DNA of 64,000 bases, from the NCBI GenBank assembly GCA_964535955.1, contig CAZHVK010000002.1, positions 72,122 to 136,121 of the forward strand, written 5' to 3'. A program made the position numbers and the translations under genes. The notes under the pieces are model-generated. The model was given only the letters and a program-made list of their open reading frames with translations, made no database searches and was not told where the DNA came from. This stretch comes from an uncultured Methanosarcinales archaeon (lineage in GTDB: Archaea; Nanobdellota; Nanobdellia; Woesearchaeales; CAXGTL01). This document shows, piece by piece, positions 38,548 through 43,349 of this stretch. Position 1 is the first letter of the stretch. Each line of letters opens with the position of its first letter.

Positions 38548-38700
38548 TCAAGAACTCATAAATCCAACTAAGAATCCATGCTCCATTGGAGATATTTCAT
38601 CATTATCCATTCCAAAGTCCAATCCATCTTCATCATAAATATCACCATCAGGCATTTCCATATCAATTATTTTTATCACAACTTTTTGTTCAAATCTCAT
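38548..38700 (-). CDS. Small acidic protein, 50 aa (not in ORF track)
   Basis: MRFEQKVVIKIIDMEMPDGDIYDEDGLDFGMDNDEISPMEHGFLVGFMSS; strong SD GAGGTGA upstream. Confidence 0.75.
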   Translation of the reverse strand: MRFEQKVVIKIIDMEMPDGDIYDEDGLDFGMDNDEISPMEHGFLVGFMSS

Positions 38701-38739: not shown

Positions 38740-38790
38740 TGTCAGAAATGTTCCATTTCTGATCATGCTCAAAAACTAGTGTTTTTGACA
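38740..38790 (-). repeat. Double-hairpin element copy 1
   Basis: + strand: TGTCAGAAATG-TTC-CATTTCTGA-TCATGC-TCAAAAAC-TAGT-GTTTTTGACA. Confidence 0.85.
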
Positions 38791-38903
38791 AACCCATTTA
38801 CATCAAAAACAGATCTTTGAGTAATCATCATTATCTGTTGCTGAAATAAGAGTTCAATTGTCTCATGGCTTATATCATTTGGTTGGATATTATTTTCTTT
38901 CAT
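38769..38903 (-). CDS. Small protein, 44 aa (not in ORF track)
   Basis: MKENNIQPNDISHETIELLFQQQIMMITQRSVFDVNGFVKNTSF; SD AAGGTGA upstream. Confidence 0.55.
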   Translation of the reverse strand: MKENNIQPNDISHETIELLFQQQIMMITQRSVFDVNGFVKNTSF

Positions 38904-38960
38904 TTCTATCACCTTTTAAGATTTTTTTAAATTATTCAGTTTACAAACTAGATAATTATA

Positions 38961-39012
38961 TGTCATAAATCAAAGATTTATGATCATGATCAAGAATCTA
39001 TGATTCTTGACA
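38961..39012 (-). repeat. Double-hairpin element copy 2
   Basis: + strand: TGTCATAAATC-AAA-GATTTATGA-TCATGA-TCAAGAATC-TAT-GATTCTTGACA. Confidence 0.85.
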
Positions 39013-39124
39013 AAAATAATATAGGCAAAGCATTAGGTATAGGGGTGAAGGTGCTTTGCCGAATCAAAAAAAACAAGTTATAGTATACTTACAGTATCTA
39101 TGCTTTATAAGCTTCACACACACA

Positions 39125-39219
39125 TGTCCAGTGACCACTGAGAATGAGAATAGAGCCTATACCTTCTGAAATCAAGCATTTAAGGTCAGTGGACACCCTT
39201 TTTTCAGATGTCCACTGAC
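39125..39219. promoter_or_regulatory. Putative operator array (TGTCCASTGA motifs)
   Basis: TGTCCAGTGACCACTGA at 39125; perfect 11-bp inverted repeat GTCAGTGGACA/TGTCCACTGAC at 39185-39219; next to a TATA-like box at 39104. Confidence 0.55.
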
Positions 39220-39322
39220 AAACTATTAATTATATTTTTTCATATATAAAAAATAATCACAATTAGATATTTTTGCATAAATTATGCTATGATTTTTAAA
39301 TTCATTAAGCTTTCTTTAGTAT

Positions 39323-40000
39323 ATGAAGCAAAAGATTACAAAGGATAATTCTGTGACTTTTTACAGTGATCAATATAAAGAATTTTATCATAGTACAACT
39401 GGTGCTAAGGAAGAAGTGTTAAAGAAATTTGTTGAGCCTTGTAAAGATTTATTTAATAAGCCAAAACTTAATATCCTTGATATTTGTTTTGGTTTAGGAT
39501 ATAATAGTGCTGGTTTGATTGATTCTGTGTTAAAACTTAATCCTGATTGTAAGATCAATATAATTGGACTAGAAAATGATATCAATATTCTTAATAAGAT
39601 TAAAGATGTAAATATAGATTTTAAGAGTTATAGGATTATTAAACAATGTATTATTGATGAAATTGATAAGGTTGTGAAAATTAACAATGTTTCATTAAAG
39701 ATTGTATTAGGTAATGCCTTGAAAACAATTAAAATGATTAATGAAAACTTTGATATTGTATTCTTAGATCCATTTTCACCAAAACAATGCCCTGAACTAT
39801 GGACTTTAGACCTTTTTAAAGAAATTTATTCTAAGATGAATGTTGAAGGAATTTTAACAACCTATTCCTGCGCTAGAACTGTAAGAGATAACTTAACTAA
39901 TGCTGGGTTTGTTGTTAAAGATGGTCCCAAGGTTGAAAGGAGAGGTCCAAGCACGATTGCAATAAAGGGTGTATGCAAACGAACCATGCACATACAATAA
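39323..40000 (+). CDS. mnmD: MnmD (MnmC N-terminal-like) tRNA U34 methyltransferase
   Basis: T.D.S.TF....Y.E.YHS..GA, CFGLGYN, LDPFSP...PELW and TYS motifs. Confidence 0.88.
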   Translation: MKQKITKDNSVTFYSDQYKEFYHSTTGAKEEVLKKFVEPCKDLFNKPKLNILDICFGLGYNSAGLIDSVLKLNPDCKINIIGLENDINILNKIKDVNIDFKSYRIIKQCIIDEIDKVVKINNVSLKIVLGNALKTIKMINENFDIVFLDPFSPKQCPELWTLDLFKEIYSKMNVEGILTTYSCARTVRDNLTNAGFVVKDGPKVERRGPSTIAIKGVCKRTMHIQ

Positions 40001-40004
40001 AAAA

Positions 40005-40514
40005 ATGAAATTAAAAAAATATCTTGAATGTGAAATCTTATTGCAAAAGTTCTTTGAAAAGATAAATTATTGCAAAAACAATTGCACTAACCAGACCACA
40101 AGCAAATTCTCAAAACATGTAAGGGGTAATGTTGGTTGTTGTTTACACAATTTTTATAATTTCACAAAAAAATTAAATCAAAAACAATTATCAATACTTA
40201 ACAAAGCAAGGATCAAGAAATATGGTTTACCAGAAAATAAAGAGCCAAGGATCCAAGGCTTGGAAAAACCATGCGAATACCACACATCAAAAGGATGCAT
40301 ATTAAAAGATCATAAAGGTTTATCCTGTATATCTTTCATTTGTAAACCTTATCAAGATCATCTTAAAGAAAAATACAATATAGATTATGATTATGATGAA
40401 ATAAGGGATTTTCTAGAAGACATACTTCTAGATAAGATTGATGATAATCAATTAATAGAATTCAGGTCAATGGTTAATAATTGGATTGAAAAAATAAATA
40501 TAGAAAACAAATAA
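40005..40514 (+). CDS. Cys-rich hypothetical protein, possibly metal-binding
   Basis: CxxxC...GCC...C..H...GC...C..F.C pattern. Confidence 0.6.
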   Translation: MKLKKYLECEILLQKFFEKINYCKNNCTNQTTSKFSKHVRGNVGCCLHNFYNFTKKLNQKQLSILNKARIKKYGLPENKEPRIQGLEKPCEYHTSKGCILKDHKGLSCISFICKPYQDHLKEKYNIDYDYDEIRDFLEDILLDKIDDNQLIEFRSMVNNWIEKINIENK

Positions 40515-40519
40515 AAAAA

Positions 40520-41170
40520 TCACTCTTTCCTAACCAATCCCCATAACAAATAAAGAATAACAAAAGTAATAACACCAGCTATAAACCAATATCCAGGATA
40601 TTGTATCATAGATTGTGTTATTGTTTCAACAGCACCTGGTGCAGCATCAGCAACTAATTCAGCACTTTTCTGAGCAGCTCCATAACCAGCTTCAACACCA
40701 GCTTCATCAAAAACAGGTGCAGCTCTTTCAGCAGCATTAAATCCAGCCATTCTAACACCAGTGAAAACCTGTATAATACCACCAATCACAACACTTGCTA
40801 ACAAAGCAGGCATCAATCTGCCTAATCTCTTGACTAATTTTTCTCTAACACTTTCAGTTGACTTAGGTGATATAATTATGAATTTATTAGCAAGTTTATA
40901 ATGATTAACTTCTTTTCCTTTTGCAGAATAATGAAATTCTTCTACTTCTACTAAACCACCTTTTTCAAGATGAGTTAGATTATAATGAACAGTTGAAATT
41001 GGTATTTTTAATTCTTTAGAAATTTGTGTTTCAGTAGCATCATCAACACTAGCTAAATAATCAAGTATTTTTCTGCAAGATTCATTACTAATGACTTGAG
41101 CTAATTTCTTTGCTTTTTTCTCTTGCAATGAAACAAGTAAAAATGTTTCTTTTTTAGACTTTTTTGCCAT
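40520..41170 (-). CDS. ArsR-like winged-HTH regulator with two C-terminal TM helices
   Basis: RKILDYL..TETQISKEL.IP.STVHYNL..L...GLV; hydrophobic C-terminal segments. Confidence 0.85.
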   Translation of the reverse strand: MAKKSKKETFLLVSLQEKKAKKLAQVISNESCRKILDYLASVDDATETQISKELKIPISTVHYNLTHLEKGGLVEVEEFHYSAKGKEVNHYKLANKFIIISPKSTESVREKLVKRLGRLMPALLASVVIGGIIQVFTGVRMAGFNAAERAAPVFDEAGVEAGYGAAQKSAELVADAAPGAVETITQSMIQYPGYWFIAGVITFVILYLLWGLVRKE

Positions 41171-41193
41171 AGTAGAGTGTATCTGTTTTAGTA

Positions 41194-41281
41194 TGTCAAA
41201 AATCATTTATAAATAATATGATTTTTGATCATGATCAGAATTCTATTGAATTCTAATACTTAGATTAGTAGAATTCTGACA
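41194..41281 (-). repeat. Double-hairpin element copy 3 (enlarged loops)
   Basis: + strand: TGTCAAAAATCAT-n11-ATGATTTTTGA-TCATGA-TCAGAATTCTA-n23-TAGAATTCTGACA. Confidence 0.85.
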
Positions 41282-41461
41282 TTTAAATAGGTTTTGATGA
41301 TTTCTAATCAAATTAAAGTCATATATAAGAAATATATACAATTTATGTATTTTATATGTATACTAAATGTATATATAGCGATATACACGGAATAATCACA
41401 GTTATATTTATAAAGGAATATTTAATCCCTATATATAATTGTATTTGATTATAATTAAACA

Positions 41462-41515
41462 TGTCAGAAATCTTAGATATCTGAGCATAATCAGGATCAT
41501 TAGATGATTTTGACA
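41462..41515 (+). repeat. Double-hairpin element copy 4
   Basis: TGTCAGAAATC-TTA-GATATCTGA-GCATAA-TCAGGATCAT-TAG-ATGATTTTGACA, just before SD GAGGTG. Confidence 0.8.
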
Positions 41516-41537: not shown

Positions 41538-43349
41538 ATGGAAGATAAGAAAGAACTTGGTGAAGAAAATATGGAACATAAAAAACAAGATACTCATGTA
41601 AAAAGTTTTAGTGTAAACGAACTTTTAGGTGAAAAACAAGAAAAACCTAAAAAACATAAAAAAAAAATAGATTATTGGAAGGTTTCAAGTATTGCTTTTT
41701 TAGTTTTATTGATAATTTCTATTTTTACAAATGGTTTTACAAGTTTTGACTTTACAGGCATGGCTGTAGATGGATCAGACACAACATTTTCAGGTGACAA
41801 AATAAAACTAGATTTCTATGTAATGAGCCAGTGCCCATTTGGAACACAAGTTGAAGATGCTGTCAAACCTGTTTTAGATAAAATGGGTGATGTGATTGAC
41901 TTTAATCTAGAATTTATTGCAAATATTGATGCTAATGGTAATTTTGATTCATTACATGGTGAACCAGAAGTACAAGGTAATATTGTTCAATTATGTGCTG
42001 CTGAACACGAGCCAGAAAAATATATGGACATGGTAATGTGTATGAATAAAAATATGCAAAACATACCTAATAATTGGGAACAATGTGCAACAGACAGTGG
42101 TTTAGATGTTGGAACAATAAAAACTTGTTATGAAGGTGAACAAGGTAAAGTTTTATTAACAGCTTCAATTGAAAAAGCAAATCAAGTAATGGCAACAGGC
42201 TCACCAACAATGTTCATGAATGACAAACCATTTAACAAGAGAAAAACAGACGATATGTTAAGAGCCATATGTTTTGCTCTTGATAATAGTCATGAAGAGT
42301 GTAAAAATATTCCAGAACCAGTTACAGTTGAATTAACAGTAATAAATGATGAACAATGTGAAACTTGTGGCACAGACAACATTTTAGGAGTATTTAATCA
42401 AATGTTTGAAGATCTTGAAGTAAAAGAACTTGACTTTGCAGATAAAGAAGCACAAGACTTAATCAAACAACACAATATAGAACTATTACCTTCATATCTT
42501 TTTGAAAAAAAGGTTGAAGAATCAAGTGGTTGGAAAGACAATGCAAATTTACAAGCTGCATTTAAACAAAATAATAATAAATATGTAGTAATTCCTGAAG
42601 CAGTTGGTGCAGAACACAATCCATCAAAAGAGATATGTGACAATGGAAAAGATGATCGTGACCAAGATGGTTTGATTGATTGTGATGATGATGATTGCAG
42701 TAATCAATGGGTATGTCTTCCAAAATTAGATAAGCCAGAAATAGAATTATTTGTTATGTCACATTGTCCATTTGGGACACAGATTGAAAAAGGTATGCTG
42801 CCAGTAGCAAAATTACTTGGTGACAAAATTGACTTAAAAGTAAAGTTCTGTGACTATGCAATGCATGACAAAACTGAGCTTGATGAACAAGTATTACAAT
42901 ATTGTGTACAAAAAGATTTTAATGACAAATTCATTGAATATCTAGAATGTTTCTTAGAAGACGGCAAATCAGATGAATGTGTAACAAAACTAGAAATTGA
43001 CAAAGCAAAACTAGACAAATGTACTACTGATACTGATAAAGAATTTAAAGTAACAGCAAACTACAATGACAAAACAGAATGGAAAGGAAGGTTTCCTCCG
43101 TTCGCAATTTTCCAAGACGAAGTTGATAAATATGATGTAAGAGGATCACCAACTTTAGTAATCAATGGAGTTGTTGCAGAAGGTGTAGGAAGGTCACCAT
43201 CTTCATTATTAGAAGGAGCATGTCTAGGTTTCAAAAACAAACCAACAGAATGTGATCAAGTATTATCATCAGACACACCATCAGCAGGATTTGGTTTTTC
43301 AGCAATAGCACCAGCAAGTTCTGGAAGTGCTGATGCACAGTGTGGATAA
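41538..43349 (+). CDS. Membrane-anchored multi-thioredoxin-fold (DsbA/GILT-like) protein
   Basis: TM anchor; two VMS.CPFG...GSPT domains; central CETC domain; EICDNGKDD.DQDGLIDC motif. Confidence 0.75.
   Translation: MEDKKELGEENMEHKKQDTHVKSFSVNELLGEKQEKPKKHKKKIDYWKVSSIAFLVLLIISIFTNGFTSFDFTGMAVDGSDTTFSGDKIKLDFYVMSQCPFGTQVEDAVKPVLDKMGDVIDFNLEFIANIDANGNFDSLHGEPEVQGNIVQLCAAEHEPEKYMDMVMCMNKNMQNIPNNWEQCATDSGLDVGTIKTCYEGEQGKVLLTASIEKANQVMATGSPTMFMNDKPFNKRKTDDMLRAICFALDNSHEECKNIPEPVTVELTVINDEQCETCGTDNILGVFNQMFEDLEVKELDFADKEAQDLIKQHNIELLPSYLFEKKVEESSGWKDNANLQAAFKQNNNKYVVIPEAVGAEHNPSKEICDNGKDDRDQDGLIDCDDDDCSNQWVCLPKLDKPEIELFVMSHCPFGTQIEKGMLPVAKLLGDKIDLKVKFCDYAMHDKTELDEQVLQYCVQKDFNDKFIEYLECFLEDGKSDECVTKLEIDKAKLDKCTTDTDKEFKVTANYNDKTEWKGRFPPFAIFQDEVDKYDVRGSPTLVINGVVAEGVGRSPSSLLEGACLGFKNKPTECDQVLSSDTPSAGFGFSAIAPASSGSADAQCG

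Follow-up and report, generated by a model that had tools for sequence, protein, structure and literature searches.

A double-hairpin repeat of DPANN archaea, a probable non-autonomous single-stranded-DNA mobile element

The SMR-A/B repeats of Haloquadratum walsbyi are described, in the sections of the report devoted to them, as sequences of about 80–110 bp that are more than 95% conserved and whose mobilisation is 'enigmatic' (PMC3119063). Here we analyse an element that, judged by those sections, resembles them in being archaeal and non-coding, in having terminal inverted repeats and in lacking a target duplication (PMC3119063): a double hairpin present in four copies (copies 1–4) in a stretch of 64,000 nucleotides (the window; positions 72,122–136,121 of contig CAZHVK010000002.1, assembly GCA_964535955.1). 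The window belongs to a 1.49-Mb genome of the Woesearchaeales (the source genome, G000; 31 contigs, scored 100% complete). The family consensus reads TGTCA-hairpin-TGA-N6-TCA-hairpin-TGACA, in which N6 is the linker, and its length ranges from 45 to 90 nt with a mode of 54. The element differs from the SMR repeats, with which it was compared by description and not by sequence, in its size of about 54 nt, in stems that vary freely while pairing is kept, and in a pairing of the linker with its own termini. We consider it a non-autonomous mobile repeat of DPANN archaea that moves as single-stranded DNA, a reading to which we assign a probability of roughly 0.55; an HUH-type enzyme is the likeliest mobiliser, at a little short of even odds, and that it is a mobile DNA insert at all is very likely.

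Among bacterial repeats, the CGTC/TGTC-tagged repetitive extragenic palindromes (REPs) share with it, as far as the relevant parts of their description go, an outer TGTC, an A-T first pair after the tag, a unit made of two inverted halves, stem changes that compensate each other, and insertion into palindromes and in frame into genes (PMC3733652). The head-to-head dimers typical of CGTC-type REPs have their counterpart in the source genome, where 69 of 72 half-sites lie in doublets (66 in listed doublets, three in nested or long ones; the remaining three are at chance level, with 0, 6 and 4 in controls). Yet these REPs are bacterial, and in the same parts of their description they carry an unpaired tag and a CCA tail, have loops of 4–5 nt and lie mostly at gene 3′ ends (PMC3733652), whereas the tag of the present element pairs with TGA and linker, its halves abut, and sites between convergent genes are rare (3/32). 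REPINs are portrayed in excerpts of their description as one long hairpin that travels with a REP-associated tyrosine transposase (RAYT; PMC3116915); here, a long-hairpin fold is unsupported and no RAYT or Y1 transposase is linked to the element. With the ends of insertion sequences (IS) of the IS200/IS605 family, as presented in portions of three reports, it has in common hairpins near both ends, the absence of a target duplication, a short target preference and bases 5′ of a hairpin foot that pair with the terminus (PMC6006769, PMC8266576, PMC3119063). PATEs, of which 52-bp terminal-only forms exist, are characterised in the passages on them as polar IS605-end derivatives without terminal inverted repeats, whereas the element is symmetric and ends in TGTCA...TGACA (PMC3119063). 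Palindromic inserts tolerated in frame in protein genes are also known from the Rickettsia palindromic elements (RPEs), which differ, by the relevant sections, in being bacterial, 105–146 bp long and of another architecture (PMC3184786, PMC3733652). From a MITE (a miniature transposable element with inverted repeats) of a DDE-type IS a target duplication would be expected; the element has none, and four empty sites show gaps of exact length. Integron attC sites act as single strands that fold, with their pairing and extrahelical bases conserved and their terminal loops variable. The element, too, conserves pairing and extrahelical bases and not stem sequence, but it lacks the GTTRRRY/RYYYAAC cores, has two hairpins instead of one, is dispersed without cassette arrays and moves on its own, and no IntI-type insertion was seen in the recombinases of the source genome. 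RPEs may also insert into RNA genes, a point on which a search of the literature returned no paper. Set apart from each of these systems by their descriptions, the family is apparently undescribed: literature searches listed no account of it, and the supplements of PMC3119063 or MITE catalogues such as PMC11602168 could hold related sequences.

The defining property of the element is its internal pairing. Each half has the form NN-TCA-stem-loop-stem′-TGA-bulge-N′N′, and two such units are joined inverted and back to back, with no spacer, in such a way that linker bases 2–3 pair with the first two bases of the element and bases 4–5 with the last two; the linker, which the initial annotation had treated as unpaired, is thus part of the fold. 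In variants within the source genome, changes of the terminal TG or CA are accompanied by matching changes in the linker. For a blind test, metagenomes were scanned for elements with any base but T as the fourth of the linker and with no constraint on the terminal dinucleotide. This gave at least 127 loci and 131 parses, of which 126 had 4 bp or more in both stems; removal of duplicates by flank left 116. Among the matches listed, linker bases 4–5 and the terminus are reverse complements of each other in 112 of the 116 unique variants (CT/AG 67/68, CA/TG 17/18, CC/GG 16/18, CG/CG 12/12). Position 4 is C in all 116, which makes a shuffle uninformative; what carries the signal is position 5, together with the departure from the canonical TG/CA. 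We regard this built-in splint as the strongest new fact of the analysis.

The stems tell a similar story of structure kept while sequence changes, as the initial annotation had proposed. In 21 elements of equal length, which as kin are not independent, the two-hairpin model pairs 98.7% of cells with 12 compensated pairs and reaches a covariation score of 0.485 against a shuffled mean of 0.186, a value that none of 500 shuffles attained, whereas a single long end-to-end hairpin remains at shuffle level (294/500). Mean column identity is 77% across genomes, stems differ also within the source genome, and loops range from 3 to more than 20 nt, while TGTC-A...T is invariant in an alignment (A2) that includes copy 2. 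The stems of 119 oriented elements hold 1402 Watson-Crick pairs (98%), 7 G-T, 14 A-C and 11 other combinations; the scans demanded paired stems, which raises the Watson-Crick share and leaves the comparison of G-T with A-C unaffected. Watson-Crick stems without a G-T bias fit DNA that folds on either strand better than RNA. Folded as circular DNA, the dumbbell is the minimum-energy structure on both strands of copies 1–3, and for linear DNA the two-hairpin model lies within 0.4 kcal/mol of the minimum for copies 1–2. Given the pairing of linker and terminus, a single strand, whichever of the two, folds as two abutting hairpins with one extrahelical base each and with its ends meeting, that is, as a nicked dumbbell; we infer that the hairpins would stack on each other and that the ends could be closed into a circle. 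Further genomes contain chains in which three or four of these hairpin units are strung together, the additional ones sitting at the central junction (loci L365, L388, L389, L391, L398, L216 and L222). Half-sites outside canonical doublets are mostly such longer chains or chance matches and not ends of an autonomous element. The loops at L124, L129 and L397 contain GC-rich hairpins, which we take to be typical of IS605/IS1341 ends.

The four copies in the window have the junctions and stems that the initial annotation had assigned to them, and they end 39, 57, about 23 and 22 nt (copies 1–4) from a start codon, in agreement with the range it had given:

38740–38790, unstranded: copy 1, 51 nt, with hairpin 1 at 38740–38765 (bulged base 38763) and hairpin 2 at 38766–38790 (bulged base 38768)
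38961–39012, unstranded: copy 2, 52 nt, the canonical 15+15 form with a palindromic linker
41194–41281, unstranded: copy 3, 88 nt, a long-loop form
41462–41515, unstranded: copy 4, 54 nt, decayed, with stem mismatches and the linker GCATAA

RNA folding z-scores on the two strands are -5.0/-3.6, -4.3/-4.3 and -6.4/-4.7 for copies 1–3, and -3.0/-1.5 for the degenerate copy 4. A structural scan that required two paired stems around TGA-N6-TCA and the ends TGTCA/TGACA detected 39 copies in the source genome and none in either of two order-4 Markov simulations of it; together with copy 4, which falls below the stem filter, and three nested or long-loop copies, the total is at least 43. Further copies, which the initial annotation had suggested looking for alongside covariation, were sought with a pattern for the element: it matches 42 of the order's 301 genomes, all three of the same genus (G001–G003) among them, mostly at 1–12 copies, and a reversed pattern gave no match in any genome of that search. 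A scan of one genome per species yielded at least 112 loci. Among the matches listed, the 80 loci with record titles are all archaeal by label (by hand count, 42 Woesearchaeota, 4 Pacearchaeota, 4 Nanoarchaeota, 3 Micrarchaeota and 27 'uncultured Methanosarcinales', the last being the unverified label as recorded). Viral contigs gave no match to the element, and a second variant class has five matches in 401 genomes. The sequencing runs listed as holders are eight of DNA, from two studies, and none of RNA. Rfam, a search of which had likewise been proposed, holds no family that reaches its gathering score for the double hairpin or for the other repeat families described below; the best overlap is with a small nucleolar RNA model at E 1.2.

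Comparison of orthologous loci shows the copies to be recent insertions. Copies 1 and 2 are absent from all four orthologous loci of the genus (G001:C102, G001:C16, G002 and G003), and copies 3 and 4 from all three. Against the closest locus, G001:C102, the gaps measure exactly 51 nt for copy 1 and 52 nt for copy 2, one or two substitutions beside each junction leaving the boundary uncertain by at most 3 nt. Another copy lies within the RNase P RNA gene (RF00373, E 3.5e-21), where G001 and G003 show a gap of 52 columns, the wrongly oriented G002 row of the alignment being disregarded. The gene for FtsY has one element of 54 nt inside an older one, the left and right flanks being identical, a clean nesting which fixes the ends as blunt and shows that the terminal dinucleotide belongs to the element. 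Direct repeats of 3–9 nt at the flanks of 126 unique elements do not exceed the shuffle level. Insertion is thus blunt and leaves no target duplication. In-frame copies reside in the genes for uL15, FtsY, a HIT protein, an RlaP-type protein and an unnamed acidic protein, and, in another genome, for a DUF371 protein; all have lengths divisible by three, which is modest evidence given that 73 of 126 copies overall do as well. Such insertions add about 15–18 residues to uL15, FtsY and the other proteins, and 52 nt to the RNase P RNA. The absence of copies from orthologous leaders, the empty sites of exact length and the patchy distribution together argue for mobility, and the empty sites, the covariation and the lack of an Rfam family uphold the earlier idea of a REP/MITE-like single-stranded element.

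Where does the element insert? Its flanks show an excess of A at -1 and -3, of G at -4, and of T/Y from -5 to -8, the pattern of its own end; A occupies -1 at 146 of 252 ends. The better end matches TTYTGAYA at 5.05 of 8 positions at the junction, compared with 3.4–3.8 at nine control offsets, the motif having been derived from the same data on which it was scored. A second preference is for other folded repeats: 17 of 40 copies lie, at several different positions, within the repeat families B and B′, which cover 7.3 kb of the 251 kb outside long open reading frames (ORFs; about 3%), although some copies at a common site in family B may have spread as composites and so inflate the count. Preferred targets thus are positions next to a sequence like the element's own end and positions within other folded repeats. 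SMR repeats, by the passages that treat their sites, insert preferentially into PATEs or IS605 palindromes (PMC3119063); family B is not established as a PATE. It is the main host of the double hairpin in the source genome, a branched covarying repeat of about 112 nt with the fixed junction motifs AGTGA and CGAACG, one orientation per contig in most contigs and no Rfam match, and it is represented by 60 matches at about 55 loci (for example L013–L017). G001:C16 carries a family B element at exactly the site of copy 3. In all, the source genome harbours at least six families of structured repeats, including the smaller B′, C, D and E, with well over 100 copies and with recent insertions.

How might such an element move? 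We envision that a nicking-closing enzyme supplied in trans would bind the TCA/TGA feet of the hairpins together with the bulges, that it would cut after the paired terminal dinucleotide and join the ends into a circle of about 50 nt, and that one strand would then be exchanged at a site mimicking the circle junction. RNase P RNA and flexible protein regions would tolerate the insert because its folding is self-contained. Several traits have their parallel in the way HUH enzymes process single strands, namely blunt ends, the lack of duplication, bulged hairpins, bases 5′ of a hairpin foot that pair with the terminus, and a short target preference. In the portions of the literature that cover it, the position of the cut in IS200/IS605 is determined by base pairing with a guide that lies 5′ of the foot of the hairpin, and the bulge of the Escherichia coli REP is needed for cleavage (PMC6006769, PMC8266576). 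Single-stranded DNA is probably the active form, and by this analogy a Y1-like HUH enzyme working by peel-and-paste is the likeliest mobiliser, a tentative assignment that falls a little short of even odds.

A number of observations, besides the qualifications attached above to the stem counts, the target motif and the family B tally, weigh against HUH-type mobilisation of a single strand. Y1_Tnp, whose presence the initial annotation had suggested checking, has no match in the source genome or the three other genomes of the genus, and the source genome likewise gives none with a profile made from 29 ORFs at Y1 loci within the order (best E 0.19). A hand tally places Y1 in 16 of 42 element-positive and 87 of 259 element-negative genomes, which is no co-occurrence. 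None of 30 Y1 loci contains the element core, 180 other Y1 matches being left out of that comparison, and no recurring mobile-gene family adjoins the element at 80 loci of the genome collection. The element is strand-symmetric, unlike the polar ends of IS200/IS605; its terminal pairing comprises 2 bp and not a tetranucleotide guide; 2-nt direct repeats exceed the shuffle level at the flanks of the 126 unique elements (24 versus 14); and the target-motif scores of the two ends are not anticorrelated (rho -0.08), both ends being enriched. Within 300-nt flanks of the metagenome loci, at least 127 in number, no recurring mobile gene was found among the matches listed, and an IS605-type parent was found neither at the 30 Y1 loci nor at 50 half-site loci (ORFs listed for 20), a search that left out TnpB loci of other genomes. 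Genes with repeats on both sides in the source genome are housekeeping genes or lack an assigned function.

Several other routes deserve weighing against HUH-type mobilisation. Conceivably, though improbably, the element is a minimal DNA transposon that splints itself: the linker would hold the ends together in a circular dumbbell that has two extrahelical bases, and insertion at junction-like sites would fall to an enzyme belonging to none of the known Y1, DDE, IS110 and reverse-transcriptase classes; this enzyme would also act on the other families of folded repeats and would build hairpin chains by repeated insertion at the junction. Also unlikely is integration of the same insert by a Xer-like tyrosine recombinase that acts on the folded single strand, one strand exchange followed by replication giving a blunt insertion. 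In the source genome, no recombinase was found other than five tyrosine recombinases; moreover, the centre of the element is an inverted repeat with a 6-bp spacer, the left and right flanks alike resemble the junction palindrome, each hairpin keeps one conserved bulged base, and a closed dumbbell would present two inverted TTYTGA/TCARAA arms and two extrahelical bases. Integron attC sites and the folded CTX phage site offer comparable arms and extrahelical bases. Tyrosine recombinases cut at the edge of the spacer, however, and the boundary of the element falls at the centre of the junction dyad; attC core motifs and gene-cassette arrays are missing; the five proteins show no integron-integrase insertion in the alignment as read, and none has the element within 3 kb; and such enzymes are near-universal, whereas the element is patchy.

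Somewhat less likely again is spread without a transposase, through an unrecognised or host enzyme such as a hairpin nuclease with a ligase, a topoisomerase, or repair at cruciforms. A genome scored 100% complete that holds at least six repeat families with recent insertions, and yet no match to Y1, IS110, TnpB or GIY-YIG, would be accounted for in this way, as would the two different repeat families found at the same site in two genomes. But transposases are often missing from assemblies or are transient visitors, the search covered seven families and left out DDE, IS91/Y2 and Rep families, and the fixed junction bases suggest a dedicated protein. Far more remote is an element that moves as RNA, with a transcript excised or circularised and then re-inserted by reverse transcription or reverse splicing. 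Tolerance inside RNase P RNA and the juxtaposition of the ends by internal pairing would suit it; the stems lack a G-U bias, a credible reverse transcriptase was not found in the source genome, the copies in proteins keep a reading frame that splicing would render needless, and the geometry departs from that of a bulge-helix-bulge. The one weak reverse-transcriptase match and the one weak resolvase match in the source genome look by sequence like housekeeping proteins, presumably a tRNA methyltransferase and a TrmB regulator. Box C/D small RNA, hammerhead, hepatitis-delta-virus-like, twister-sister and bulge-helix-bulge identities were dropped, their motifs being missing and Rfam support lacking.

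The initial annotation had also raised a cis-regulatory RNA, and a leader of this kind, or a transcription-factor site, controlling the neighbouring genes is the least credible of the explanations considered. It would draw on the 16 of 40 copies that end within 100 nt of a start codon, on a central TGA-N6-TCA palindrome that could bind a dimeric protein, and on an excess of intergenic copies between divergent genes (16/32, compared with 28% of intergenic bases, p=0.0075; 3/32 are convergent), an excess that may instead reflect tolerance or open AT-rich DNA near promoters. However, the element is absent from orthologous leaders, it occurs in coding sequences, in an RNA gene and in other repeats, the neighbouring genes are functionally unrelated, there is no G-U bias, and hairpins of varying length keep their pairing, something that a binding site in double-stranded DNA would not call for. 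The linker polarity described earlier, KCATRA in the sense of the downstream gene, does not hold genome-wide: of the 18 pairs of element and gene in which the start is no more than 100 nt away, eight have a palindromic and hence uninformative linker, as do the two window copies with TCATGA, and only two of the ten informative pairs fit. The commonest linker across genomes, GCATGC (74/126), fits KCATRA in neither sense. The regulatory reading is therefore largely refuted, and any effect on neighbouring genes is secondary.

The genes next to the window copies are the following:

38548–38700, minus strand: small conserved acidic ORF, downstream of copy 1; a neighbour outside the element, without Pfam match
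38769–38903, minus strand: small conserved ORF, hit by copy 1, without Pfam match
40520–41170, minus strand: gene for a winged helix-turn-helix (HTH; HTH_20/ArsR-like) membrane protein, adjoining copy 3, with orthologs lacking the element
41538–43349, plus strand: gene for a GILT/thioredoxin-fold protein, adjoining copy 4, with orthologs lacking the element

That each copy precedes a gene is right as far as the distances go, but copy 1 at the same time sits in the last codons of the preceding ORF, 38769–38903, and provides its stop codon (C-terminal end GFVKNTSF in the window; GFLEI, RFLEV, SFLNA and QFLKI in relatives, each followed by the stop). This ORF and 38548–38700 encode proteins of about 45–50 residues that are kept in genomes of the same genus. 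A hairpin at 39024–39060, with a 9-bp stem and a variable purine-rich loop, lies 5′ of both and is kept in all four relative loci; this hairpin, and not the double-hairpin element, is the candidate conserved leader. Copy 3 falls between the start of the HTH gene and a TATA-like box (about 41282–41299) that is conserved in relatives, so that a local effect on this gene by separation from the box is possible. G001 contains two versions of the window locus (the pair G001:C102/L161 and G001:C16/L160), one about 90% and the other about 70–80% identical, with a different gene order, and is possibly a mixed bin.

Some features of the other repeats are recorded here in their own right. A family B remnant lies in the window at 39971–39996. 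Family C has eight loci, including 39099–39221 of the window and C25:5017–5138 and C7:1479–1601 of the source genome. One copy is located 19 nt upstream of the gene for a 275-residue Xer-like tyrosine recombinase and another 1.1 kb from its paralog; both of these loci adjoin mutL-like genes with variable small cargo genes, and gene order and content beside the window copy vary among relatives, making the family C locus a possible gene-capture site. Family D, an AT-rich repeat of 65–85 nt that opens with a TATA-like word, has 15 loci in the source genome (for example C13:32233–34536), and its copy at C10:32780–32918 hosts a nested double hairpin. Family E presents the family B junction motifs in permuted order and often ends at a start codon (C6:1–249, C16:32616–32676 and about 11 others); two contig ends carry a 63-nt tandem array. 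A composite of about 210 nt, made of three repeat modules including the double hairpin, is amplified in a Woesearchaeota genome, where many copies are 85–97% identical to one another, and also occurs in two others (L039, L041, L051, L068, L084, L088, L105, L108, L121, L123, L075 and L040). In the RNase P RNA of G012 (L326:1530–1580), an unrelated hairpin of about 46 nt is inserted close to the 5′ end.

The family bears on the problem of how REP-like and small mobile repeats spread without target duplication. It offers a sharp substrate rule, which specifies the bases that pair (112/116 among the matches listed), the positions of the bulges, the ends and the target, and a 52-mer oligonucleotide could therefore be used as bait for the enzyme. 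For annotation, stretches of this kind should not be called leaders, promoters or new RNAs. If the element does move as a self-splinting transposon of the kind considered above, this would amount to a new route of transposition and a candidate answer for the duplication-free small mobile repeats of archaea. For the organisms that carry it, the family shows streamlined DPANN genomes being edited by tiny inserts into proteins and RNase P RNA.

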